DNA of 64,000 nt from Raja brachyura. Taxonomy: Eukaryota. Below, in pieces: positions 19,655 through 61,274 of this stretch. Position 1 is the first letter of the stretch; every line of letters begins with the position of its first letter. The notes below the pieces were generated by a model. The model had not been told where the DNA came from. It was given only the letters and a program-made list of their open reading frames with translations, and did not search any database. The stretch covers positions 24,490,001 through 24,554,000 of the forward strand of contig OY740798.1 in NCBI GenBank assembly GCA_963514005.1. Direction: 5' to 3'. The translations under genes were made by a program, and so were the position numbers.

Positions 19655-20355
19655 AGGTAGACAAAGGTGCTGGAGAAACTCAGCGGGGGCAGCAGCATCC
19701 ATGGAGCGAAGGAAATAGGCAACGTTTCGGGCCGAAACCCTTCTTCAGACTGATGTAGGGTGGGGGGAGAAAAAAGGAGCAAGGAAGAGGAGGAGCCAGA
19801 GGGCTGAGGGAGAGCTGAGAAGGGGAGGAGACAGCAAGGGCTATCGGAAATTGGAGGTCCATGTTCATGCCACTAGGGTGCAAACTGCCCAAGCGGAATA
19901 TGAGGTGCTATTCCTCCAATTTCCAGTGGTGCTCACTCTGGCCATGGAGGAGGCCCAGGGCAGAGAGGTCGGATTCGGAATGGGAGGGAGCGTTGAAGTG
20001 CTGAGCCACAGGGAGATCAGGTTGGTTAATGCAGAACGAGCGGAGGTGTTCGGCGAAACGATCGCCAAGCCTACGCTTAGTCTCACCGATGTAGAGCAGC
20101 TGACATCTAGAGCAGCGGATGCAATAGATGATGTTGGAGGAGGTGCAGGTGAACCTCTGTCGCACCTGGAACGACTGCTTGGGTCCTTGAATGGAGTCGA
20201 GGGGGGAGGTAGGGATGAGTGAGTAGGGATGAGTTAACCTGGGAGTTGCAGAGGGAACGGTATCTGCAAAAAGGGGTGGAGATGGGAAGATGTGGCTAAT
20301 GGTGGAATCCCGTTGGAGGTGGCGAAAATGTCGGAGGAGTATTTGCGATGGCTGA
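19655..20355 (-). mobile_element. Penelope-like element fragment (GIY-YIG endonuclease plus tail)
   Basis: CTSSNIIYCIRCSRCQLLYIGETKRRLGDRFAEHL; tail carries a hammerhead motif at 19721-19748. Confidence 0.9.
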
Positions 20356-21502: not shown

Positions 21503-21755
21503 TAGAAAAGGCATATCTATTCATTTATGTCCAACTCTCTATACTTTAATTAATCCTCTGCCGACGTTAGTATGTTACCGCAACCTGTTTACCTTTTGGT
21601 TTATGTAACAAACTTTCACTTTTGCAATTTCAAGCACTTTTTATAAATCCAAATGTAGCACATTAACTGGATGACTAAACGAAATTTGTTATTTCAAATA
21701 AAATTTATGTCATAAACTATCGTGACATTGAACAAGCACAGTATGATTTTCTATT

Positions 21756-21850
21756 CCCTGAAGAAGGGTCTCGACCCGAAACGTCGCCTATCTCCTACGC
21801 TCCTTAGATGCTGCTTCACCCGCTGAGTTTCTCCAGCCTTTTGTGTAACC
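21756..21850 (+). mobile_element. 95-bp Penelope-tail mini-element
   Basis: 13-bp TSD ATGATTTTCTATT at 21743-21755 and 21851-21863. Confidence 0.88.
21758..21785 (+). ncRNA. Minimal type I hammerhead ribozyme motif
   Basis: CTGAAGA-a-GGGTC(tc)GACCC-GAAAC-GTC: CUGANGA core, stem II, GAAA, GUC cleavage triplet and palindromic ACGT stem III. Confidence 0.75.
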
Positions 21851-22362
21851 ATGATTTTCTATTAGCCTAGTACCTGCTTTTTAATGATATTTTCCAACAT
21901 TTTGCTGACAACTTTCCCAACTTTTTTGGCATGAATATGGTAGAGTCAGAATCCATTTTCTGGCATGGAAATATCAAATACTATAGAGCATAGCATTAGG
22001 GTGTGAGGGGCAACGTTTAAAAGAGATGAAAGGGCAAGCTTTCTTTGTTATACAGGTGGTGGCGGGTGCATGTAACACGAGGCAGATAAGATAGTGGCAT
22101 TTAAGAAACTTTCACAGAGAACAAGGATGTGTAGGGAATGGTGGGATATGGATTATGTGCAAGCAGTTAAGAGTTCAGTGAAGAGATTGGCGTGCAAAAT
22201 TAGAGCACATTCTATTGGGGGTAGGGTATTCACATGAATAGAGAACTGGTTGGCAGACATGAAGCAAAGAGTAGGAATTCAAGGGACCTTTTCAGAACGG
22301 CAGGCAGTGACTAGTGGGGTGACTCAAGGCTCGGTGCTGGGACCCCAGTTATTTACAATATA

Positions 22363-28030: not shown

Positions 28031-28384
28031 GTAGGAGGTTGGTTTGTAGTGGATGTCAGTCAGGAGTGTATCACCTGCAATAGAGATGGTGAGGTCAAGG
28101 AATGGTAGGGAAATGTCAGAAATGGTCGAAGTATATTTGAGTGCCGGATGGAAGTTGGTGGTGAAATGGATGAAGTCAGTCAGTTCTGCGTGGGTGCAGG
28201 AGGTGACACCAAAGCAGTCGTCAATGTAACGGAGGTAAAGGTCGGGGGTGGGGCCCTGGTACGCCGAGAACAAAGATTGTTCGACGTGCCCGACAAAGGG
28301 TCTGAAGAAGGGTCTCGACCCGAAACATCGCCTATCTCCTTAGATGCTGCTGCACCCGCTGAGTTTCTCCAGCTTTTTGTGTAA
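28031..28384. mobile_element. Penelope-like insertion: inverted RT fragment joined to a hammerhead-bearing tail
   Basis: LYLRYIDDCFG...PFLDLTI on the minus strand; tail on the plus strand; 14-bp TSD ATTTCATAATGAGA at 28017-28030 and 28385-28398. Confidence 0.87.
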
Positions 28385-28629
28385 ATTTCATAATGAGATC
28401 TTACTTCAGAGTGACAGATGACATTTTGTGTTGAGACCCTTCTTCAGACTCTAATACCATCCTGACCTCCCCTCTAAATCGTCTTCCCCTCCCCCCCCCG
28501 GACACTGAATAGTCTGCCCTCAGTAGAGGTCTTAACTTTGCGCTGTGCACCAACACCTCACGGAGTTCCAATCCCACCATGATGTTGAGCTGTTTATACA
28601 AGACTGAAACAGGCACTCTGGCTTGATCA

Positions 28630-28870: not shown

Positions 28871-30669
28871 TATCCAGGTTATCCACTTTTATCACACAGT
28901 ATATTTTAGCATTGAAATTTCATCACAATTTCAATTCTTCCACATGGGGACACCGACAATTAACCATACAGCCAATCATAGCTATCTACCACAATCTGCT
29001 GCAAAAATTTGAAATTCAAAAATCTGCAGATTCTACAACACTGATATTAAAACAGAAAATGTTCGAAACTGTTAACAAATCACACAGCATCCGTGGAAAG
29101 GGAAAGAGAATATTTCAGATCAGAGACCTCTGCATTAGAATTGAAGAGTTTTTAACCAGGATCTTTTACTTAAGTTTCTCTTTCCATAGATGGTGCCTAA
29201 CCCGTCGTGTACTTCCAGCATTTTGTTTTTATACTGCAAAAGTTGACGCAGATACCAGGTTAACCTAGATAGCATATCAAGTTATGATATTATTAATTTG
29301 CCACTATTTGCTTCATGAGTGAGCAATGACAGCTATCCAAAGGAAACCCATTCCATGTAAAGACAAAATATACTGCATTAAATGCCGTATTAATGAAAAA
29401 TTAAACCCAAAATCAAATTTAAAAAATACCCTGCAGATTTGATAAAATCTAAAGTTGGAGATATTAATCTAAAATCACAACAGCTACCATGCCTTTCCAT
29501 CGTTTTACATTATAGAGAAATATATAAATTTAAGGAACACAAAAACGTTATGCACATGGGTCCCATTTTCAATAGTCATTAATTAAAAAAAACACTTTTT
29601 ATTTATTAACGTTTAAAAGTTCAATTCTTTTCAATCCAACTATTGTTTTGCTTTACGGTGCTGGTAATAGGTAATCGTATATTTAATAAGCATAACTTGA
29701 AAAATTACCAGCTTATCTTCCTATAATTACTCTGTACCTCAAAAAAGGCCATCACGGTAATCGTTTTTATGCAGGGCTGTTCAGGAATTTGATTTATTTA
29801 TAACAGTAGGCCAGGAGACGGCTGTTACACAAAAAATGTGAAGTATCGTGACAAAATATCAATTGCGAAGATAACTTTAAGGAATTATTGACTAACAAGT
29901 AGCTCTGTAGAATGTCATTTGAATACGTAGACAAGTGATACCAATACAACCACGTTAATGGAAGTACCATCAATCTCTCGCCGAGGCTTTTGAAATTGGC
30001 ACGACTAATAGTTGTATACTGGAATATATTAATGAAGTATTTGGTGATCTGGACTAACTTCAATAAAATTTATGGAAATGCCAGAGGCACGGAACAAAAA
30101 AATAGAAATACCAAGTACAAATCACTTAAAGCGGAAACCAAAGCTAGAATTTTAAAAAATATTTGAATATTCATCAGTAAAGTTCATTTCAGATGTTGAC
30201 AAATCTTGGACACTAGCAGTACTTGCTGCTTTTATTCAGTAACATTCTAACGCTACAAGGCGCGGGCCCAGTAATTTACACGTTAACGATCACAAAACCA
30301 GAAACATTTCACAGTTGAGCTGTTTACTGGCGGCAACGGGCAAGCCGGGCAGTAAAATCCTCCGGACAAAGAGCAGCGGCAGCCGGGGTGGTGTTGGAGC
30401 GAGCGGGCGGACGGCCTGCCTGGGGCCGGACGGTGGGAAGCCGCCCCTGCGGTTACTGGTTACGTAGGGCAAGTTTGAAAATGTACCGAGGACCAAAGCA
30501 GAGGCGAGAGACTTCATGGTCCGGCTGAACCAAACTGGCTTCCACACCTACTCTCAGCACCAAACCGCCGAGGCTCCGCTCCCGGACACCTCTCCCCAAC
30601 ACACAACTAAAACCTTGGCCGAGCTGGGTAAAAGAAATAGGGCACACTGGGTAAAAAAAAATTACTAAC

Positions 30670-30730
30670 CTCTTTTTTTCCAACAATTCCTCCCTTCGAC
30701 CACCATGCATCAGGAGCGGAAACACAGTGG
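30670..30730 (-). other. ZNF143: ZNF143 first (5' UTR) exon; 5' end approximate
   Basis: Minus strand reads cctgatgcatggtggtcgaagggaggaattgttggaaaaaaagag|GTTAGT, a donor inside a CpG island. It closely resembles the human ZNF143 leader as I recall it (TGCATGGTGGTCG...GGAATTGTTGGAAAA); not verified by alignment. Confidence 0.8.
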
Positions 30731-30734
30731 CGCT

Positions 30735-30848
30735 CCTCACCCGCCCCGCACCCTGAATCGCGCATTGCTCCACCTCGCCCGCCCCGCACCCTGAATCGCA
30801 CATTGCGCCACCTCGCCCGCCACGATCCCTGAATCGCGCATTTCTTCA
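30735..30848. repeat. 38-bp tandem repeat, 3 copies, immediately upstream of ZNF143 exon 1
   Basis: Unit cctcRcccgccccgcaccctgaatcgcRcattgcNcca; the ctgaatcg core recurs at 30753, 30791 and 30829. Confidence 0.92.
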
Positions 30849-30959
30849 CCGCACCTGCCTACTCCTCAGTCACTCATTCCCATTCTTCGTTCTTGGTCCT
30901 CCAAAATATTCCAACTGGAATTTAAACTGGAGGTGGTGAAGGGAGGGGTTTAGCCAGAG

Positions 30960-31285
30960 AGGGTTATTGGGAAGAAAGTGCCACTAAATTTAGTTGCATC
31001 TGGCTGGGCAACCGTGGCTTGGTGGAGATTATTCCATGCTTTAATAGTGCGTGGAAAGAACAAATTGCTGTACACATCTGTCTTTGAGGCTGGGACCACA
31101 AATTGGATCGAATGCCCTCGTCTGCTCCTAATTGGTCCTAATAGATCTTGTGATCTATGTCTAGCTGACCATTTAACATTTTGTAAAAACAGGTCAAACG
31201 GTGAGCTTCACGTCTGTCTTGTAGAGGGTTCCACCCTAGAGAATTCAGAAGTTTGGTGACATTGACTGCAACCCTCCACCAGGGT
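30960..31285 (-). mobile_element. LINE ORF2 C-terminal fragment (L2/CR1 group)
   Basis: VTKLLNSLGWNPLQDRREAHRLTCFYKMLNG; downstream FFPRTI-like motif. Confidence 0.65.
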
Positions 31286-31479
31286 GTTGGAAGAAACTGC
31301 AGGTGCTGGTTTACACTGAAGATAGACAAAGTACTGGAGTAACTCAGCGGGACAGGCATCTCTGGATAAAATATTTTTTTATTTTAAAATAGTGATTGGA
31401 ATGGGTGTCAGTATGTGTTATGCTGTTGGAAGTAAGAATTTCATTGTTCTATCTGGGATATATGACAATAAAACACTCT

Positions 31480-32030
31480 TGACATTTTGGGTTGAGAACC
31501 TTCTTCAGACTGAGTCAGGGAGGAGGGAAACACAAGGGTGGAAGATTGCAACCTTCTCGTGGTCCGCCCTGTTTCGACTAATGCAATCAACTCGACATGC
31601 ACAAACGGAAGATCAAATAGAACAAGTTGTCCAACAACTTTAGGCTGTGCACGCCACATAAAAGAAGAAGAGGGAAACACAGAGTTAAGGAAGTGTAAGG
31701 TGTGAAAACGAGACATTAACAGGGATGCTGTTCAAGGTAAATGTGGAATAGATCATTGTTAGAAGGTGACAACGAAGCATACAAAGATAATATGAAATCC
31801 GGGGGACAGTCAGGTCGGAGAACTAGGATAGGAGAGATGGAGAGAGGGAACGCAAGGGTTTCTTGAAGTTAGAGGTCAATATTCATACAGCTGGGTTGTA
31901 ATTCGCCCAGGTGAAATATGAGGTGCTGTTCTTCCAATTTGCGTTGAGCCTCATTGACAATGGTGGAGGCCCAGGACAGAAAGGTCGGTGTAGGAATTGG
32001 AGTTAAAGTGTTTAGCAAGTTCAGGTAAGT
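31480..32030 (-). mobile_element. Penelope-like tail/EN-end fragment with a nested plus-strand retroelement tail (31547-31670, GAA tail)
   Basis: Similar to 58300-58575 and 19850-20010. Confidence 0.7.
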
Positions 32031-32039
32031 TCAGGTGGA

Positions 32040-32395
32040 GCAAGGTGGAGGGGGGCGGGGACATTGCCAGAGGGGGGCAGGGGAGGACACTGGCAGTGGG
32101 CGGGGACTATTGCGAGGGGGGCGAAGACACTGGCTTGGGGGGGCACCGGTGGGGGGACACTGGAGGAGGGGGTGGAGGGAGGGAGAAGACTGGCCGGGGA
32201 GAGGGAGGAAACTGGCTGGGGGGGATCATTGGTCGGGACACACACACTGGCCGAGAGGGGTCTGCCCGTGTGGACGGGACTAGCCGGGGAGAGGGAGGAG
32301 ACCGGCTGGGGAGGGGGACATTGGCCTGGGGAGAGGGAGGAGATCGGCCGGGGGGGAGGGACTGGCTGGGGGGGGGGGGGGAGAGGGGGAGAGAG
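32040..32395 (+). repeat. G-rich low-complexity minisatellite-like tract
   Basis: Repeated ggggagagggagga...ggctgggg units and G runs longer than 10 nt. Confidence 0.8.
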
Positions 32396-32830
32396 ACAGC
32401 CGGCCTCGCGCTCCATTGTCGGCGGATCCACGCGACCAGCGCGGAGTCACGTGCGCGGGGCCGGCTCGCTCACCTCACGTGATGAACCAGGCCGTGATGC
32501 AATGCAACCCCTGGGCGCCCGGAAACGAAGCTGCCGCTGTCGCAGTTACTCAGCTTCCCGGGTGCTCTCGGGCGCCATTTTACAAAAAGGCCATCGGTCC
32601 ACCAGATGAATTTAATACATATTCGATGCGCAAAAGCCTCCGGAATATGTGTTTGCTGTGTTGGGGAAATTTAAATGAGCGAGGGCAGCGTTAAAGGCCC
32701 AATTCTTTGGCGTTTTGGCCAACACGCAGCGGTCAGGTGTCGTCAGCGAGCCTGTCGGCGGAATGGAGCTGGCGGGAGGGTGGATGCAGCGCCTCCGTGC
32801 GGCCGCCCGCGGTGCTTCATCACCACGTCT
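32395..32830 (-). promoter_or_regulatory. Second CpG island with promoter motifs and a candidate alternative first exon (about 32474-32600)
   Basis: E-boxes GTCACGTG 32446-32453 and TCACGTGA 32475-32482; YY1-type AAAATGGCG (minus, 32573-32581); donor GAG|GTGAGC with exon end at 32474. Confidence 0.65.
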
Positions 32831-32929
32831 GGTGCTGGTTCCTTTGAGCTGCAGAGAATAACTTTAATAAAATGAGGAAGCTGTAAAAGCGAGCCTCTTT
32901 CAAAGGTGTAGTTAGCACTTCCGAATAAA

Positions 32930-33439
32930 CTTAAACTTTGCCAAATTGGCGGTACTGTAGAGAGTGAAGATGGTTATTAAAAATTAACGCATGATCTTGA
33001 TCAGTTGAGTATCTTTGGGCAAGAGGGCTGAGGAATGGTTGATGGGAGTTTATCACAGATATGTGCAAGGTGTTGCATTTTGGGAAGTCAAAATAAGGCA
33101 AGGGCTTCACGGAATGTTGTAGGGATCTATCCAAGGGATCTAGAAGTGCAGGTTCACATTCCTCGAATGTGGGGCACCCCCCCATCCCGGTGTTAGGGGG
33201 GCAAGAAGGAAGAGGGACCAATGGGACTATATTGAATACTATTGTAACTTTGTCAACACCCTATTTGTGGCAACTCTTTGCATACTTGTGTATATGCAAA
33301 ACAAAGAATTTCACTGTACCGAGTATACATGACAATAAAGTGTTAATCAGTTGGAAAGTGCAGAGGAGATTTACGGTGATAGGGAAAGATTTAATAGGAA
33401 CCTGAGGGACAACATTTTCACACAGAGGGTGGTGGGTAT
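32930..33439 (+). mobile_element. Degraded CR1 that hosts the Gypsy insertion (continues at 45158-45340)
   Basis: cacagagggtggtgGGTAT|atggaatgagctgccagagg is continuous CR1 sequence once the LTR element is removed. Confidence 0.8.
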
Positions 33440-33638
33440 TGTCATGACGATGAGACATGATGATATGCAAATATCATGACCTTTGTATCAGATAACTTGG
33501 AGGTCAGTGTGTGCACTGGGTAAGCCTAGGCTGGAGGCCATGGCTGAGTAAGATAATAAACACGGAGACCAAGGAACGTAACCTGTAAATATTGTGTCAG
33601 TATTATTATTATTCCACATCTGAGGCGAAGATGTGACA
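33440..33638 (+). repeat. 5' LTR of the Gypsy element
   Basis: 199-bp direct repeat of 44946-45152; contains AATAAA; followed by the PBS at 33640-33652. Confidence 0.96.
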
Positions 33639-36189
33639 TTGGCGACGAGGATATTTCGGATATTTTGGACTCTGAATCCGTGGCTACGAGCAGGAAAATT
33701 TTTTTTTTTTTTAAATGGCAGTCGCTGGAGCTGATTTCTTAGCACTTCGCAGAGTTCCACGTGCGATGCGAGTACCGTCAGCGTGAAGTGGAATGCTTGG
33801 CTGGAGGAATTCGAAGCTTACGACAACAGTTGAGGTCTCTTTCTTGAGGAGAGTAAGCCGGGGCAGAAAGCACGAAGGAGAGCGTTGCTTCTTTTCACCG
33901 CGAGGCCAGCAGTTCGAGAAATGTTTAAAACACTCCCTGATACCGGAATGAAGGAAAACTATAAGAAAGCCGTTGATGCTTTGAACAGTCATTAGTGGTG
34001 CCAAATGCTACATTTCAACGCCATTTGTTCCGTAAAACAATGCAGGAAGAGGGCGAGATTGTTGCTCAATTTGTGACGAGACTCAGACAGGTGTCTGTAG
34101 GATGCAAATATGTGGCTGCTGATGTGGAAAACCAGATATTGGATCAGGTTGTCCAGCATTGCAGGTTCGACAAGCTCAGGAGAAGGCTGCTTGAAGAAGG
34201 GGGTGAGTTAAACCTTAAAGATGCTTTGTCGATTGCAGCAGCACTGGAAGCTGTTGAGGGACAATTTCACAACATGAAATTGAAAGATTCTAAGACTGGG
34301 CAAGTTGACCATCTGTTCTACAATAGACCAAGAGGTATGCCTGAACATGAGATCAAGTGTTACAGGTGTGGCAACAAGGGTCACATAGGGAAAGATGCAT
34401 GATGTCCAGCAAAATGTGGAACATGTAGGAAACGTGGAGATAAAGATCATTTTGCAAAGAAATGTAAAAGTAAGGCCAGGGACAAGACAACTGATTACAA
34501 CAAGAAAGGGAAGTCCAGTGAAATGAAAAACAGACCTTGACTGAAAAAGAAGGGTAATGTTCGTCACGTAGAAGGTGATTTCGGAAGTGATGAAGCTGGT
34601 GAGCATGCTGTTAAAAGGAATTATCAATTTGCATTGAATGAGAGCCATTACGAGAAAGTTGCAGTACCCATCGGAGGTGTTACAGTGCCAGTGATTGTAG
34701 ATTCTGGTAGCGACAGCAACGTAATTGACAGATCACTTTGGGAATGCTTGAAACAGCAGAAAATCAAGTGCACGTCAAGGAGGTGTAGTAGGAAGTTATA
34801 TCCATGCACCGCAACTAAACCATTGCAGACCATTGGATGTTTCACGGCTAAAGTAGAAGTCGGAGATAGAGAAACTGAAGCAGAATTTGTGGTGATAGAG
34901 GAGAAGGGAGAACCTCTGCTTAGTAGAAATACAGCTTGAGAGCTGGGAGTGCTTCACATCGGAGTGCATGTCAATTCAGTGCAGTCATATGATGACATGA
35001 GGCAGGAATTTCATTCAGTATTCCAAGGGGTTGGAAAATTGAAAGGCCGGCAAGTGAAGTTAGCCATTGATGAAAATGTCAAGCCGATAGCTCAACCGGT
35101 GCGGAGAACGGCATTTGGACTTTGTGGGAAAGTTGAAGCTAATATCAAGGAGTTGATTGATCAGGACATTATTGAACCAATTGAATGTTCAACACCATGG
35201 GTGAGTCCAGTTGTGATTGTGCTGAAACCCAATGATGACATTAGACTGTGTGTTGACATGAGGAGAGCCAATGGGGCAATAATCAGAGAAAGATTCCCAA
35301 TTCCTATGGTTGATGAGGTGCTCAACCAGTTATCAACCAGTAAAGTGTTTTCCAAAATTGATCTAAAGTGGGGATATCATCAGTTGGAATTACATCCAGA
35401 GTCAAGAGAGGTGACAACATTCGTCACCCACTGCGGATTGTACCGATACAAAAGACTGATGTTTGGAATCAATGCTGGTCCCGAGATCTATCAGTACAAA
35501 ATTCACAGAGTGATTCAAGGTGTACCAGGAGTAGCAAACATATCAGATGACATCATCGTCCATGCAGCAATTCGTGAAGAGCATGACAGGAGGTTGAAGC
35601 TAGTGTTGACTAAACTTCAAGAAGCAGGTCTCACTGTGAATGAAGACAAGTGCACGTTTGGCGTCTAATGAGTGCATAAACCCTTGGATATTATGATCCA
35701 GCTGCACCAACAAAAGTCATAGCAGGTGCTAGTCTTGTCGGCTTAGGAGCAGTGCTGGTACAGAAACATGCAGATGGACCCAGAATCATAGCATATGCCA
35801 GTCGATCGTTAACCAGCGTGGAGAGAAGGTATTCTCAAACAGAGAGTGAAGCACTGGGACTAGTGTGGGACTGTGAAAGGTTCCATGCATACTTGTATGG
35901 CATTGAATTTGAACTTGTTACAGATCATAAGCCGCTGGATGTGATCTATTCGACATCGTCTAAGCCATGTGCCAGAATAGAACATTGGGTGCTGAGACTC
36001 CAACAGTACAAGTACAAAGTAGTCCACATTGCTGGGAAAGCAAACATCGCGGACCCGTTGTCGAGACTGTTGAAGGATGAACAGCTGTGAGCAACATCCA
36101 CGCTAGAGATGGAAGCAAATAACTTTGTGCTATTCGTCGCAATTCAGTCAATGCCAGGGGCCGTAACAACGAAGAAAGTTGAAAGGGAA

Positions 36190-39100
36190 ACATAGAAAAT
36201 AGGTGCAGGAGTAGGCCATTCGGCCCTTCGAGCCTGCACCGCCATTCAATATGATCATGGCTGATCATCCAACTCAGTATCCCGTACCTGCCTTCTCTCC
36301 ATACCCCCTGATCCCCTTAGCCACAAGGGTCACATCTAACTCCCTCTTAAATATAGCCAATGAACTGGCCTCAACTACCTTCTGTGGCAGAGAATTCCAC
36401 AGATTCACCACTCACTGTGTGAAAAATATTTTTCTCATCTCGGTCCTAAAAGACTTCCCCCTTATCCTTAAACTGTGACCCCTTGTTCTGGACTTCCCCA
36501 ACATCGGGAACAATCTTCCTGTATCTAGCTTGTCCAACTCCTTAAGAAGTTTGTAAGTTTCTATAAGATCCCCCCCTCAATCTTAGAAATTTTAACGAGT
36601 ACATGCTGAGTCTATCCAGTCTTTCTTCATATGAAAGTTCTGACATCCCAGGAATCAGTCTGGTGAACCTTCTCTGTATTCCCTCTATGGCAAGAATGTC
36701 TTTCCTCAGATTAGGAGACCAAAACTGTACGCAATACTCCAGGTGTGGTCTCACCAAGACCCTGTATAACTGCAGTAGAACCTCCCTGCTCCTATACTCA
36801 AATCCTTTTGCTATGAATGCGAACATACCATTCGTTTTCTTCACTGCCTGCTGCACCTGCATGCCTACTTTCAATGACTGGTGTATCATGACACCCAGGT
36901 CTCATTGCATCTCCCCTTTTCCTAATCGGCCACCATTCAAATAATAGTCTACTTTCCTGTTTTTGCCACCAAAGCAGATAACCTCACATTTATCCACATT
37001 ATACTGCATCTGCCATGCATTTGGATAGGTTGCCCACACGCAACCTATCCAAGTCACCTTGCAGCCTCCTAGCATCCTCCTCCAGCTAACACTGACCCCC
37101 AGCTTCATGTCATCCGCAAACTTGTAGATGTTACATTTAATTCCCTCAGCCAAATCATTAATATATATTGTAAATAGCTGGGTGACTTCAATCTACATAT
37201 AGATTGGGTGAATCAAATTGGCAGAGGTTCTGAGGAAGACGATTTCCTGAGATTATTACCTTCGCGGCCCTTCTCCTTAACTCTCCTAACTCTATACACG
37301 CAGGCTTATACTGAAAATAAACTACCAGAAACTTTAGTAGAATCAACAATAACGCTTATACCAAAAAAAAGATAAGACTTAGAGGAACCGGGTTCTTACA
37401 GAGCAATATCAATTCTAAATACGGATCAGAAAATGTTAGCAAAGATTCTAGCAAGAAGACTGAATAATTATATTAACAAATTGGTAAACCCGGATCAAAC
37501 GGGATTTATACCTAGAAGACAATCATTTAATAATTTGAGAAGGCTTTTCAATGTAATGTACTCTCACAAAGAGGACATTGAAGATATTTCAGTCGTTACG
37601 TTGGATGCAGAGAAGGCATTTGGTCAGGTAGAATGGCAGTATTTATATAAGGTACTCCACAAATTTAATACGGGAGAGATTTTTTATTAGATGGGTTAAA
37701 CTACTTTATGATAAACCTACGGCAAGAATATTAAGTAATAATATGTTATCTCCAAAATTGTATTTATCAAGGGGTAATAGGCAGGGTTGTGCCTTATCAC
37801 AATTACTATTTGCCCTTATGATAGAACCGCTGGCTGAAAGGATTAGAAAGCATCCGAATATTCACGGATATAATACTAAGGACTCAAAGAATAAAATGTC
37901 ATTATATGCTGACGATATTCTTTTATATATTACTAATACACAAACAAGTATCCCCACATTAACACTAATCGAGGAATTTGGTTGTTTTTCAGGATATAGA
38001 ATAAATTGGAATAAAAGCGAAATTATGTCTTTGAAACCACAGGATGCGAGACACTTATTAAAATTCCCTTTCAAAATTGCAACAGAAAAATTCAAGTATT
38101 TGGGTATTCAAATTACGAGAAGACACAAATCATTATTTAGTGCCAATTTTATGCCACTATTAAATAAACTGAATGTTATGATTACATTTTGGAAAACGCT
38201 ACTGCTCTCATTGATAGGTAGAATTAATGCTATAAAAATGACTTTCTTACCACAATTAATATATTTGTTTCAAGCGATCCCAATATATATTCCAAAATAT
38301 TTTTTCAAAAAACTAGATTCTAATATCACTAATTTTATATGGGATTATAGAGCACACAGAATTCAACGAAAGCATCTGTGCAAACCTAAAGAAGTTGGGG
38401 GTTTATCATTACCTAACTTTACGTATTACTACTGGGCAGTGCATATTAAGAACATAATGTACTGGTTGGATAGTCCCACTCACCAGTCAGAGTGGATAAG
38501 AATGGAGAAAGAGGAGTGTTTCTCGTACGATAGAGAAACGATCTTGTTCTCACCGATAAAATAGTATAATATAGAAGAAGAACCCAATTATTCACAATAC
38601 AATAAGAATTTGGAAACAAATAAAATTATCCTTGAAATTAAATAATCTATCAGTACTAACCCCAATATTGAATAATCCTGCATTCAAACCATCTCTTATC
38701 GACAAAACATATAAACAATGGGATAGACTGGGAATTAGGAAAGTAGGAGATATGTATGAATTGGGTAAATTGTTATCATTTCAACAATTAAAATCAAAAT
38801 TTAAACTGAATGATAATCAATATTTTAAATATATACAGATATGTGACTTTATGAAGAAATATATACATAGATTTCAAACTATATCTTTAGACCCTTTAGA
38901 AGAAGCAATGAATATTAAGACTGATTCACAAAAACTAATATCATATTTTTATAATAGTATATTAAATAGAGAATTACCCTCAACAGAGGCACTAAGAGAA
39001 GATCGGGAACATGAATTAATGATAAAGATTCTGAAAGATAGATGGGAAAAGTATCTGATGAACACACATAATTGTTCCATTAATGCAAGAGATAACTTAA

Positions 39101-40305
39101 TTCAATTTATATTATTTAAAAACGAGGTTGAATAAATTCTACTCAAACGTCTCTCCTAGGTGCGATAAATGTTTGTTTCAAAATGCCAATATTACACATT
39201 CATTTGTAGGATGTATAAAGTTGAATAAATTTTGGAGCGATATATTTGATATATTTACAAAGCTCTTTAAGTTAAGACTAGAACCTAATACGGAATGGAT
39301 TATATTTGGAATAATAGTAGAAGATATCAATTTAAACAAAGACCAAAAAGTACTCTTCAATTATTGGTTAATAATTGGAAAGAAATTGATACTTAAATTT
39401 TGGAAATATACAGCTATACCAACTATTAAAATGTGGATTAGTAATATGACGGACATAGCTCACCTTGAAGAAATGAGACTCTGCCTAATAGATAAATATG
39501 ACCAATTCTTAAGGAGTTGGTCCCCTTTCATCGACTTTTTGGAATCATGTGATACAGCAGTACCGTAAAGATTACTGATTTCAGGTCAGGTCGTGGATAG
39601 AATTACATCTCCGAACAAAGATTTGAAACTTTTCTTTTTTTAAGGGTCTTTTTCTCCTATTTCTACTTTCTACTTTCTCTTTTCTTATATACACACTTCA
39701 CGTTTTTCTATTTTTCCTCTTTTTCTTCTCTCTCTCTCTTGTCTTTTTTTACTTCCTTTTCAAAAACATAAAACTAGAGGTTGTACATAGAATGTATTAC
39801 GTTATGACATAGTTGGCACCTAAAATTAGGTGCCACTGTATTGTTTTGTATTGCATTAACTTCTAACAAAATAAACAAAAAAAACAGAAAAACTCTCCTA
39901 ACTCCCTAAAATATCCTTTCAGGACCTCTTCTCTTTTTCTACCTATGTCATTGGTACCTATATGTACCACGACCTCAGGCTCCTCTCCTTCCCCTTTCAG
40001 GATATCTTGGACACGTTCAGACACATCCCAGACCCTGGCACCAGGGAGGCAAACTACCATCCGGATCTCCTGACTGCATCCACAGAATCGCCTATCTGAG
40101 CCCCTAACTACAGAGTCCCCTATTACTAATGCCCTCCTTTTCATTTCCCTACCCTTCTGAGCAACAGGGCCGGTCTCTGTGCCGGAGGCCCGGCCGCTGT
40201 TGCTACCCCTAGGTAGGCTGTCTCCCCCAACAGTACTCAAACAGGAGTGCTTATTGCCCCTCCTAACCATGACCCACTTGTCTGCCTCCCGTGGCATACC
40301 GTGGC
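36190..40305 (-). mobile_element. Rearranged CR1 (HER1-like) LINE nested in Gypsy pol and split by an L1
   Basis: RT C-terminus and 3' UTR at 36190-37180; inverted endonuclease fragment 37181-37249 (GDFNLHIDW on +); ORF1 SGNH esterase (VIGDS, VHIGTND) at 39905-40305 continuing at 37292-37246. The Gypsy frame rejoins across the insertion (VERE|SEHVPEL). Confidence 0.88.
37293..39890 (+). mobile_element. L1-clade LINE, 5'-truncated ORF2 with 3' UTR and A-rich tail
   Basis: RT motifs (DQTGFIP, LDAEKAF, GNRQGC, LYADD), GGLSLP, C-terminal CCHC (CDKC...H...C); A-rich tail; 14-bp TSD AACTCTCCTAACTC at 37279-37292 and 39891-39904 at a TT/AA site. Confidence 0.95.
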
Positions 40306-40489
40306 AATCAGAACATGTTCCTGAACTCAAAGATATCAGAGAGCATATACACAGTGGACAATGGGAGCAATGCCCTTATAAAGCATATGTTCCAATAAAA
40401 GATGAATGTTGTGTAATTGGACAGTGTATGCTGAGAGGTAGCAGATTGGTGATCCCGCAGGCACTACGACCAAGGATAATGTCATTAGC

Positions 40490-41506
40490 TAGCAATGTTA
40501 CGAAATTTTGAGATTTAAAAAATTAAGTCTGCAATTTATCCCATCAGATAAAGCATAAAAAGAAGTTTAATTTGACACCTAATTCATATCTTCAGTATTA
40601 AAAAAGTTATGGCCATTTTCATACTCAGAAATTAGCATCTTGTTCCCTATTGCTTTTCCATTGACTTAACACAAAAGCTGTGATCAAGGACAGTCAAAAT
40701 CCCATAACTTTCATAAAAATTAAGAGAACTGAATGAAATTTTCAGTTATTATAGATTGAAGCATTCTGAAACAAATATGAAACAATCTTACTTGGATGAC
40801 CTGAAATTTAAGCATATAATTAGTTAGTTACCTAATTGTAGCTAATTACAAAATTCAATTACTAGATCTAAACATTTCTTAAGAAAAGGTTAACATTTTT
40901 TAAAAGCCTAAGTGTCCAAATAACATTCACACAAGAATTCACAATATAACATGATTTTTAAATCTCATTGTCATGAATTTATAAGCCAAATTGAAGGAAT
41001 TTCATATTTAATTCCCGTAAATTAATGGCCATTGAAATCAACTTGCGAGTGGGTTTTTGTGGAACGGGATTGTTTGAAACGTTGCGGTTTGCGGTGAATT
41101 TAACCCCTAGTCGGCAGGAAAAATACTGCCTGTTTGTATATTTTTTAAGGCACCTTTTCGCAACATGTAATTTTGATTAAAGGTTTCCTGAGAAGCACGT
41201 TTTAATTTAAAAATAAACTGTGTACCTTTCTTTGTCCCCTACATGTGATCTGTCCCGTTGTCGGCGTTCACGGCTTTAGAAGATGATTTTTAATTCACTC
41301 TAGCAATTAAATTATTCAGCGCAGTTTAAACATAACTCCATAAAACAAATGTCGGAGCAATTTCTCTTCAGCAAATAAATCCCCTGAGATTAATCGATTT
41401 GAATGGTCTGGAGTAAACGGCATTTTAAACCCGCCCCCTCTCAAAGGCACCAAAGGGCAGTGACAAAACTGCAGCGCCCCTAAAGGTAAGTTTTGTAACA
41501 TACCTA
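40490..41506. mobile_element. Non-autonomous TIR DNA transposon with 7-bp TSD, copy 1
   Basis: Ends TAGCAATGTTACGAAA ... TTTTGTAACATACCTA; TSD CATTAGC (40483-40489) / CATTAGT (41507-41513). Confidence 0.88.
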
Positions 41507-51351: not shown

Positions 51352-52423
51352 ATTAGACTAGACTAAACATTTTTATTTATCATTTACAGGTTGGCTTAAC
51401 CCTCATTCACAGTTCCTCATCCTGGTGATTTGTACCATCACCTGCCCTACTGCAACTGAGCAGAGACAAATCAGTAGTCAACACCCATCTTAGCTCCATA
51501 CAATATTAATGTTTGGTGTTTTCTTTTTAATATTCATAATAAGGAAATGAAAATAGCAAAAATATGAACACATAGCAACAAATAATTTTTCAATCTCGTA
51601 GATGGAACATGTTTTTATTTCAAGGCATCCTTTCTGGTGTAGTTTCAGCAAAAAAAACAACTCTTGTGTAATATGCATCCCTCATTGCGTACTGTCATAA
51701 TGAAATCAATACGCCAAGTTGTAAAATTCTGTAACACTTAGGCAAAGAACTTTGGAAATGAGATGAGCTGCACTTTGTTGATTATAGCAAAGAATAAAAT
51801 TGATCTGCTTTTTACCAAGAAAATTGACTGATTCTTCATGGCATCTGCACCCAATCACTATCTGCAAGCCCTCCTTTGAGATGGAGAATTAAGATTGAAT
51901 TGTTCTTGATCAACATGTATTAGCTGGGTTCACATAAAAGTGGCATTCTGCTTGGAATAAAAGTATTTGATTTGAGTGAAAGGATTGTAGGAAAAAACAT
52001 TTTTTTTTTTTTAAGCTGGTATGTTACATTTCTAAGGCCTGTACGTAGTGGTTATCTACATAACGCAACAATTTCATTCCCTCTTTCAGGAAGCTGAGGA
52101 ATGGTAGGATAAAGTAGGAAATTGAACATTAAAATTCCATAAACAGCTCTGTGCCTTGTGAAAATAGTGATTATTTATGAGCCCAAAGTGAATGACATCG
52201 CAATATGTCCCAATCCAAAGACTTCCAGTCAGTCATTGGACAGTAATCATATTCCAGTGCCATGCTCAATTTTAAGGACTCTGCCAAATTTAAACATACC
52301 AAAATCCATTACCAACCTTGATCTGAAATTTTCCTGACACGTCACAAACTAGCTTTCTCGTACCATTTATTTTTGTAGTGATACCTCAATCTTACACAAA
52401 ACACCTTTCAGTTTCCAGGGCAT

Positions 52424-52713
52424 ACAAAAATGCTGGAGAAACTCAGCGGGTGAGGCAGCATCTATTGCGCGAACGAAATAGGCGACGTTTTGGGTCGAGA
52501 CCCTTCTTCAGACTGATGTGGGGGTGGGGGGGGAAGAAGAAGAAAGGAAGAGGTGGAGACAGTGGGCTGTGGGAGAGCTGGGAAGAGGAGGGGAAAGATG
52601 GAGAAAGCAGGGACTACCTGAAAATGGTGAAGTCAATTTTCATACTGCTGGGGTGTAAACTACCCAAGCGAAATATGAGTTGCTGCTCCTCCAATTTACG
52701 GTGGGCCTCACTC
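52424..52713 (-). mobile_element. Penelope-like tail fragment
   Basis: Collinear with 19660-19940; hammerhead-like motif at 52484-52511. Confidence 0.85.
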
Positions 52714-56490: not shown

Positions 56491-57790
56491 CTGTGAAAGG
56501 AAAATCATGTTTTTTACATCACCCCTTGCCACTATCGAGTGATCATTTGAACAGTAATGACATTTTAAAAATCTGCTCAGTATCTAAGCTACAGCCAATT
56601 AGTACAAATCCATTCATGAAACGAACAGAAAAATTTAGTGAAATATCTTAATTTTAAGTACTTCTGAATCCAGAATTCTCTGTGAAACGTCTCATTTTCC
56701 AGATGCTGCCTTAACTGATGAATGTTTCCATTATACACAGTACCCCAACTCGCCCCCTTCTCTCCCAACTGTACTCTTTTAGAAGATGTACGAGAAAACA
56801 ATCAATTCAACTGGAAAATAGAATAACAAAGTAGACACTAGACATAGTCATTATAAAATAAGATCAGCTCACAGCAGAATCAGAATTAATCTTATTTCAA
56901 AACCCATCCATATTGCACACATGATGGCACAGTACAAATAAATAACTATTTTCTCTTCACTTGTGATTGGAGATGTGCCAGTCTTAACAACCTACGTGAT
57001 TCGTGGAACAATGTCATCGGACTCGCTCTGGGGACACTGTATGCTGAAACCAGAACCCGCCCCAAATTGCCCTTCAGCAGTATTAGTCTATAGAGAAACC
57101 TCAAATGCCTCATACAGGCTATATTTGCGTGTCACGTTAACATGGATCTCCCCAGTCACTGGTAATACTTGGGAATTGGTACTGAGCATTTATCCAGCAA
57201 AGGAACAAATGGATCCAATATAACAGTCTCTAATAAAAGAAGATAATATGCTAGATAACTCAACAGGCTAGGCCTGAAGAACATGGAGAGATGACAATTC
57301 CCATTTTCAGTCTCTCGAGTTTCAAATCTTGAACATGTCTCCATTAAAAAGTGTGCCAGTTAGATGAGTAGTTTGGCCCATGATAAACTTCAAGGAGTGG
57401 CTGCTAATATTAAAAATGCTTAAAGTTGTACTTCGTTGGTTCTATATTTAAAATATAAATTCCAAATAATCAACAACTAAAATATATAGATGTCTCTAGA
57501 ATGTTTAACTATTCCAACATTTTGAAAACTGTTTCATTACATTGAAAACATAAACATGTAGATTTACACGGTGTATAGACCGAACCAATTTCAGTGGTAA
57601 AGCTCCCCGTCCACCACCATAGGTTGGGAGTGAGCATGTTGTGTTTCCGTACTGATCACTTTTTATTCACCATTTCATGCTGGACCGAATTTGTGAACAC
57701 CGTTTGATGATAGGCTTCCTTTACAAAAATAGTCTATACTTGAAAGATGATTAAACTAAATAGGACAGGAAAGTGAAAACTCAAACATAC

Positions 57791-57994
57791 TTTGCAGTAC
57801 AGTCTTGAATATCTGATATTCATCAATATTGCTGTCTTCATTATCAACAATGGTGCAGTATCCTTCAAGGGCTGTCTCTTCTGCATCATCATCTTCCCAT
57901 TCTTCATCATCACCATCCTCGCCAGCTTGCTTTGCTAACATTTCTAGATATTCTTGTCCATCTTCATCAATATCGTCTTCATCGCTACCCAGCT
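57791..57994 (-). CDS. IPO7: IPO7 acidic-loop exon ([46 protein letters not shown]...YQIFKTVLQ)
   Basis: 204 nt; AG 57995-57996, GT 57789-57790. Confidence 0.96.
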
Positions 57995-58249
57995 CTGTCA
58001 AAGAAAAGACAATTAGTAGCTTTAACACAAATAATGAATTTGCAATGAAAACTGCTTTCATCTGCATTGTTCCATTCTCCCCGCTGCTCCTGTAACTTAC
58101 TCAAGGACAAAATGCCACAAGGAGGAGAACACTAAATGTGCTGATATTGCACTTTTTGGAATATATACGGTTAGTATCAGGAATGAAAATCTGTTTGGAA
58201 GCTTGTCACTTAAGAACATCTTACACAATAACAATTACTTCAGGCAAAA

Positions 58250-60230: not shown

Positions 60231-60610
60231 AATTACTTATAGTTCAATTCCAAAGAACACTCAGCACGTTTGAACTATCCTTGCATCGCTATGAATAGGG
60301 GAGTAAAGTAGTATTGTTATTCAGAATAAAGCTAATATTAACCTTTCTACAGTAAATCACATCACCAGGCTCTATTAGAGTTCACAATTCAAGAAAAAAT
60401 CAAGCACTATGAAAAGGGCTGAATCACTAAGATAATTTGGCCTCACTATAAAATCGTTCAATCTTAGCTTTCCTAATTTACATTATCATGTATTAGACAC
60501 CAGAAAATGTCAACTCGCTCTTAATCGCCACTTATATTAGGTCTACAATTTATTACCAAGTATTATGTATTCTAAATGGGATATAAAAATACAAATAGAA
60601 CTCAGCCTAC

Positions 60611-60816
60611 CATTTTCATCATCATCTTCTCCATCGTCATCATCATCACTATCGTTTTCATGCTCTGCACGACAAGCATATGCTCTTTTGAGTCCACCAA
60701 AAAGAAGAGTGAGAGCTGGTAGAATCTGTCCCACAACCTGGTTCACAATTTGTGGTCTCTGCTCAAGTTCAATCAATGCACAAAGGCCAAGGACGCACAT
60801 TTTCCGATCATGCAAA
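60611..60816 (-). CDS. IPO7: IPO7 internal exon ([21 protein letters not shown]...[19 protein letters not shown])
   Basis: 206 nt; AG 60817-60818, GT 60609-60610. Confidence 0.97.
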
Positions 60817-61274
60817 CTGGGCAAAAGGAAGAGGAAGTCATTGAATATGAACAATTACAATTTAGTTCACCTAAATTGTATGGCGACATACAACCACAAT
60901 TAATAAATGCATTCACTGTATGGAGTAACATGTTAATTTAATTTTGTAGGTTATGTCAATAGATTATTTGCATCCATAATACTGAAAAGGTGGAGTTCAA
61001 AAGCACCATATTCCATCTCAACAATGAAATGGAAGAGCATATTTCATGTAGTGTAATATCACGATTTGATGTTCAAAACTATAAATCTGCATTTCCCATT
61101 CACTACTCAGGGAAGTGCCATCCCAAACATCATAATTCCATTGGCAATATTACTACTTTGAGCTAACTAAAATTAGCTATTATTTCGATTTTCAATTATC
61201 AAAAATATCAATTCAGAAGCAGAGGATTTCACATCTATCCCAAGTCTATTCTCAGCTCAGAACTCTATAACCTA

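Follow-up and report, generated by a model that had tools for sequence, protein, structure and literature searches.

What gave rise to a free-standing unit of only 95 bp, and is such a unit a mobile element in its own right? The question is raised by the 64,000-nucleotide stretch of Raja brachyura DNA analysed here (contig OY740798.1, positions 24,490,001 to 24,554,000; hereafter the window), in which ATGATTTTCTATT is found at 21743-21755 and again at 21851-21863, bracketing a 95-bp insert. The duplication is exact, these are its only two occurrences within the window, and the chance of such a match is 4.8e-8 per placement. The first-pass annotation had reported this perfect 13-bp duplication around the unit, and it is borne out both by the sequence and by an empty site in the related organism D. 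Occupied and empty alleles were compared in four of 20 listed runs (X1, X3, X6 and X10). Contigs from X1, X3 and X6 (organisms A, B and C) reach into the insert from each flank, and record 9 of run X10 (organism D) fuses window position 21742 (record 274) to 21851 (record 273). Because 21742 runs straight into 21851, the X10 allele is without the insert and without one copy of the duplication. The 95-bp insertion is real and lineage-restricted. Its parts, numbered within the module with the C of CTGAAGA as 0 (21758 in the window copy), are the following:

21743..21755, no strand: left 13-bp copy of the target site duplication (TSD), the single copy in the empty site of run X10
21756..21757, plus strand: two-base junction filler CC, replacing the AGT start of the family
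21758..21785, plus strand: minimal type I hammerhead motif, read from the sequence and matching the description of min-HHR in the part of PMC4209133 used here
21758..21781, plus strand: hammerhead parts read from the sequence, namely CUGAAGA (21758-21764), an extra A, stem II GGGUC-UC-GACCC (21766-21777) and GAAA (21778-21781)
21781..21784, plus strand: ACGU palindrome of the hammerhead, with the predicted cut after 21785
21786..21850, plus strand: remainder of the module of a Penelope-like element (PLE), delimited by the 3' ends of 100 copies
21851..21863, no strand: right copy of the TSD, from the sequence and the empty site of run X10

The motif CTGAAGA-A-GGGTC-TC-GACCC-GAAAC-GTC is present at 21758-21785 as first read. 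The unit had also been said to begin two nucleotides before CTGAAGA, which is right for the position and wrong for the two bases as family sequence, since the family carries AGT there. In fact, the exact 38-mer core is found 29,497 times genome-wide, preceded by AGT in 18,598 cases and by CC in 218, and the junctions of 30 CC-preceded loci that we inspected were heterogeneous. A subfamily starting with TTCC or CC was considered and rejected, its enrichment among the top BLAST hits being a query bias and the 218 genome-wide cases having unrelated junctions. The element-derived part of the insert is 93 bases and the leading CC is junction filler, which abolishes the initiator-like start and one of two stem I pairs, helix I of the window copy being 1 bp. 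At its other side the insert stops at the first of two module end points (+93), the optional 37-nt tail is missing, and no homology with the target is seen at the 3' junction. Because AGT was lost at joining and there is no tail, the window copy probably no longer works as a ribozyme, promoter or template. One 95-bp copy by itself is ordinary and has no evident function.

Terminal modules with a minimal hammerhead are of a known kind, of which the window copy is a further member. Its parent is classed as a Neptune-type PLE by the features set out in the portion of PMC8557442 on which we rely. [quoted passage not shown] Matches to Pfam were weak (RVT_1, E 2.5e-4; GIY-YIG, E 1.7e-3), each below the curated cut-offs, and there were 537 homologues at E<=1e-30, many with RT annotation and some with GIY-YIG. 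The listed homologues are mostly 700-950 aa long. A long Pro/Ser/Thr-rich stretch, at about residues 160-470, separates the N-terminal domain of the L244 ORF from the RT.

Tandem units (L241, L243 and L245) measure 3,930-4,051 bp, with a module at each end and an ATG at +163, and the ATG of the 1,192-aa ORF lies likewise 163 nt downstream of the C of CTGAAG. The module ends one ~4-kb unit and stands before the ORF of the unit that follows, and in long copies the 3' UTR and the end of the GIY-YIG-encoding ORF lie upstream of the module. The arrangement of EN+ PLEs, with tandem and inverted pseudo-LTRs and an optional 30-40-bp tail, is found here. A locus that seemed to show a module reading into the ORF (L177) was rejected, as it consists of two separate insertions. 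As far as the account of Craig et al. (2021, PMC8557442) extends, EN+ PLEs of the Neptune clade share with the window family the single ORF with RT and C-terminal GIY-YIG, the DKG motif, a linker of the CX2-5CxxC type, partial tandems, inverted 5' pieces, the optional 30-40-bp tail and the pseudo-LTR hammerhead. In that account, however, 5' truncation is described without a peak, whereas about half of the window family's copies consist of the module alone, their 5' end being fixed. The window holds three further copies:

19658..20330, minus strand: older, separate long copy of the PLE family, comprising a GIY-YIG fragment, the 3' UTR and, at the 3' end, the module (19748-19658); it shares 66% identity with the C-terminus of L244's intact ORF
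28302..28447, plus strand: short module copy starting GT/CTGAAG, with a 28-bp inverted piece at 28447-28420
52423..52511, minus strand: module that closes, at the 3' end, a longer copy belonging to an older subfamily; CATCAGT stands before it

Outside these copies, the minus strand of the window carries an exon of an importin-7-like host gene at 60546-60854 (match to PDB 6n88_A, E 5.6e-31) and a second importin-7-like exon at 57756-58100, assigned solely from its acidic sequence. On the plus strand, 37376-39568 holds broken ORF pieces that we presume from their translations to be an L1-like RT, and 33977-36090 a broken gag-pol that we take, on the same basis, to be Gypsy-like.

The module is abundant. 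Exact matches in the 2.7-Gb genome number 29,605 for one 42-mer and 40,969 for a 44-mer, that is about 30,000-41,000 exact young copies, and 96 BLAST hits within 340 kb of arbitrarily placed regions extrapolate to roughly 0.7-0.8 million copies of all ages. End points were scored in the first 100 genomic matches, all within the first 4.2 Mb of contig C1, a sample blind to the 5' flanks because the search pattern lay 3' of the predicted cut. Their 3' ends fall at +89 to +98 (63 copies) or at +121 to +134 (34), with 3 elsewhere. Among the 5' ends, 44 lie at -5 to 0, 4 at -6 to -12, 37 at -19 or beyond (26 reaching the extension limit and 11 ending between -19 and -272) and 15 at +2 to +32, none of these at +23 to +30. 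The 3' ends thus cluster at two points separated by 37 nt, and the 5' ends have a single sharp end point at AGT/CTGAAGA. The genome-wide counts agree: the 29,497 exact cores fall to 18,598 with AGT and to 10,775 with ACCAGT, a loss of 63% over six bases. Since about 37% of core-matching copies are without the full AGT, the 5' end is a 6-nt cluster rather than one base.

The sharp 5' peak near CTGAAGA that had been predicted is therefore there, and for this class of copies it refutes a smooth, random 5' truncation. Breaks inside the module and between -19 and -272 are what ordinary, extreme random truncation of 3'-primed copies would leave, yet such truncation accounts neither for 44 of 100 ends in a 6-nt window nor for the steep genome-wide fall, and we give it next to no credence as the origin of the insert. 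TSDs are 9-18 bp long, and an adjacent TSD of at least 9 bp was seen in only 20 of 70 short copies.

A sharp peak had been offered as support for a distinct family; alone it is no proof of one, and here it more likely marks where the RNA of the autonomous element begins. In total, 517 exact matches continue beyond the tail into the 5' UTR and ATG. Thirty ORF-carrying pieces start at -7 to +3 (10), further upstream (7) or break at +23 to +106 (13), so that 17 reach +3, of which 10 stop by -7. This comparison discriminates best: ORF pieces cannot derive from solo modules and yet share that end, hence the fixed 5' end is a property of the ORF-bearing template. Moreover, young ungapped copies (n=151: 70 short, 69 long and 12 unclassified), which belong to one young subfamily and give modest power, do not separate by length: mismatches per 93 nt are 1.57 in short versus 1.54 in long copies, the long tail is present in 19/70 versus 23/69, and six variant sites showed no difference between the 70 short and 69 long copies (p at least 0.097). 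Among 30 BLAST loci, 4 of the 6 nearest relatives of the window copy (98.9%) are long. Within this modest power, no family sequence apart from that of the autonomous element was found, and the 95-bp unit is likely not a separate family. The proposed distinct, non-autonomous, retrozyme-like family is not supported, in view of the shared 5' end of the ORF pieces, the likeness of short and long copies in divergence, variants and tail, and a start upstream of the cut. What stands of the first-pass annotation is a PLE-type minimal hammerhead module inserted solo with a TSD, most likely by the RT and endonuclease of the PLE.

The hammerhead itself bears on the same point. The family has the CUGANGA and GAAA core, an NUH cut site, a base before stem II and a palindrome at 15.2-16.2. 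In the available portion of Cervera and De la Pena (2014, PMC4209133), min-HHR share with it a helix III that is only a palindrome, the unpaired base before stem II, G10.1-C11.1 and single motifs dispersed in their thousands; that activity in vitro is low and that single motifs are widespread is reported there as well. Single motifs are held in that source to be probably truncated PLEs, whereas here the 5' ends are non-random. We tabulated 243 module copies, chosen at <=8 mismatches in 31 nt and hence biased towards conservation. Of 141 older copies, 114 have the first helix I position paired, 93 the second and 23 the third; the family has accordingly 2 bp, like the D. virilis variant and in contrast to the 4-5 bp given for other min-HHR in PMC4209133, so far as it is drawn on here. 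With a 2-bp helix I there is no loop 1, and the loop-loop contact of canonical type I hammerheads is not found. Stem II differences among subfamilies are largely one-sided changes to G-U, with hardly any double changes. An Rfam scan of the window returned no hammerhead model at E<=1, and in folding the insert has no advantage over shuffles (z 0.37 and 0.78), its minimum-energy structure not being a hammerhead.

Retrozymes, according to the sections at hand of PMC7229834 and Li et al. (2026, bioRxiv 10.64898/2026.07.22.740005), form tandem arrays with a hammerhead in each unit. Non-LTR retrozymes (Cervera and de la Pena 2020, PMC7229834; bioRxiv 10.64898/2026.07.22.740005) are in these same sections non-coding and PLE-related, with a type I hammerhead and a TSD >4 bp, all of which they have in common with the window unit; they differ in being tandem repeats, typically of 150-450 bp, with canonical hammerheads and expression as circles. 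The window unit is a 95-bp monomer between TSDs with a minimal motif, its ends do not follow the cut site, and head-to-tail units each with a hammerhead are not found. That dimeric hammerheads excise the module, which is perhaps circularised and then retroposed as a family of its own, is in our view very improbable. The catalytic core, the extra A and the ACGU palindrome would suit it, as would the frequent head-to-head and tandem pairs, but the 28 nt upstream of the cut are retained, no circular permutation occurs among the 100 copies, and stem I is only 2 bp, or 1 bp in the window copy. Two-mismatch junction counts are 232 at the predicted cut (+28) against 195 and 99 at the control positions +31 and +25, less than 1% of copies and no clear peak, although cleavage may occur rarely. 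At the +28 loci, the only ones inspected, 18/30 were scored as true junctions by script, about three inverted ones being mislabelled. Same-direction run-on into a second module beyond the tail was seen in 1 of the 100 sampled copies. One locus (L310-L312, G000:C2:55272483-55272639), also in favour of excision, has three 61-bp head-to-tail repeats, each beginning exactly at the predicted cleavage site; these may have been left by a cut template or by stuttering of the RT.

Initiators follow the consensus YYANWYY. Positions -5 to +1 read CCAGTCT, and older subfamilies have most often TCAGTCT (28/141); both fit the consensus, with A at -3. For D. virilis Penelope, an internal promoter containing Inr and DPE is reported in the part of PMC2377424 consulted. 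The base preceding AGT, where it was counted, is G in 2,039 cases, A in 1,075 and T in 627, so that G makes up 54.5% observed versus 26.8% expected. This excess is inflated, since among 30 GAGT loci 5 are one repeat carried by a DNA transposon and 12 stand behind an inverted module; the G share is about 50% once a sixth is removed as transposon-borne duplicates, and a TSD was callable at just 4 of the 30. For L1 and SVA an untemplated G is taken as a copied cap (PMC4859970, in the passage concerned).

A sharp capped start is likewise predicted, and the initiator match likewise explained, if solo modules behave as SINEs, with an internal promoter overlapping the hammerhead and short capped RNAs copied in trans by the PLE protein. 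The ACGT palindrome at +27 to +30 from the putative start has DPE-like spacing and matches 5 of 8 positions of RGACGTGY (PMC2377424, same part), and capture of unrelated sequence between solo pLTRs has been described (PMC3846280, in the portion used). Nevertheless, short-only variants are absent among the 70 short and 69 long copies compared, the ORF-bearing pieces have the same 5' end, the window copy is without AGT, and copies ending at +93 are without the downstream RNA that the anole protein needs (PMC11167929, in its in vitro part); we regard SINE-like copying as unlikely, though not negligible. A sharp end could also come from a barrier in a longer, tandem read-through RNA, the RT stalling or being released at the 5' edge of the hammerhead by structure or a bound protein. 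Copies passing -3 (37/100), the existence of head-to-tail tandems and a peak at the stem I edge would agree with it; a barrier predicts neither the G excess at -4 nor the initiator match, however, and a stem I of just 2 bp in a region folding no better than shuffles (z 0.37) makes a poor obstacle, so that we consider it improbable.

The 95-bp insert is a recent, TSD-flanked module copy, and we find it likely that it was made as run-off (strong-stop-like) cDNA covering the initial ~96 nt of the PLE mRNA. Reverse transcription in the family, from this analysis, probably primes within the PLE mRNA and runs off its capped 5' end. Transcription would start at the A of the initiator-like CCAGTCT (-3), giving a presumably capped RNA that would hold the module twice. 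The GIY-YIG domain would make a staggered cut in host DNA, leaving the TSDs of 9-18 bp, and the RT would prime inside the RNA, near +93 or +130. Synthesis primed in the 5' module would run off after ~95-135 nt and leave solo copies such as that of the window, which would be of the +93 type, with AGT lost and CC gained at joining; priming in the 3' module would yield long copies, truncated to varying extents, and re-priming may produce inverted and tandem composites. The near-equal split of solo-end and long copies (44-48 vs 37) fits priming in the 5' versus the 3' module. Because the template would be uncut RNA, the hammerhead may be a passenger at the copying step.

This run-off model finds a parallel in vitro. 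In the part of the study available, the RT of an anole PLE starts synthesis at two places inside the RNA that delimit the tail; it does so without homology to the target and requires RNA downstream of these sites. Products become shorter when the template is shortened at its 5' end, and uncut RNA serves as the chief substrate (PMC11167929). The anole element belongs, however, to a PLE clade other than that of the window family. PAc (Poseidon of Anolis carolinensis; Frangieh et al. 2024, PMC11167929), in that same part, has in common with the window family two 3' end points bounding a tail, a module at the pLTR-ORF junction and no sign of cut RNA as template, and the 3' junction without target homology is seen in the window copy as well. 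It differs in that its ORF begins inside the hammerhead, whereas that of the window family lies 163 nt downstream, and its description in this part has no discussion of genomic run-off copies ending at a capped start. In the portions of the literature covered, we found no description of run-off copies ending at a PLE start site.

Several composite arrangements were observed. Many insertions among L181-L210 are composites in which a module, the tail and 50-150 nt from the beginning of the ORF come before a second module that starts anew near AGT/CTGAAG, which suggests repeated priming and jumping inside one event. Head-to-head pairs are common (junctions L264-L283; L032/L033, L092, L114), usually with the long tail on one arm, the short end on the other and one TSD round both. 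A dispersed non-coding repeat of ~2.98 kb (L291:1712-4700, L292:1779-4751, L293, L294, L122; G000:C1), 97.7-99% identical at 5 loci, carries eight PLE module fragments and spreads them secondarily. Its 14-bp terminal inverted repeats, CAGGCACGTGCCGT, and 8-bp TSDs mark it as a DNA transposon, and the idea that this module-carrying repeat is a non-autonomous element mobilised by the PLE was rejected. We take it to be hAT-like and non-autonomous.

How pseudo-LTRs are regenerated and what hammerheads do are both open in PLE biology, as presented in the parts used of PMC2377424, PMC8557442 and PMC11167929. With an intact ORF and tens of thousands of copies that hardly differ, a young family is a natural record of where cDNA starts and stops. 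Under the run-off model the start of transcription is predicted to the single base, and cleavage would not be needed for copying. Perhaps, and we advance this only tentatively, an obligatory strong-stop step opens PLE retrotransposition, at which the RT would prime ~95-135 nt inside the capped 5' end, copy the uncut hammerhead and cap, and jump; this would regenerate the pseudo-LTR and leave hundreds of thousands of solo modules, the ACGU/GAAA box doubling as a downstream promoter element and AGT-keeping solos acting as tiny Pol II promoters. A sharp-ended mini-element flanked by a TSD is not necessarily a SINE or a retrozyme, and short run-off copies may record how PLEs copy themselves.
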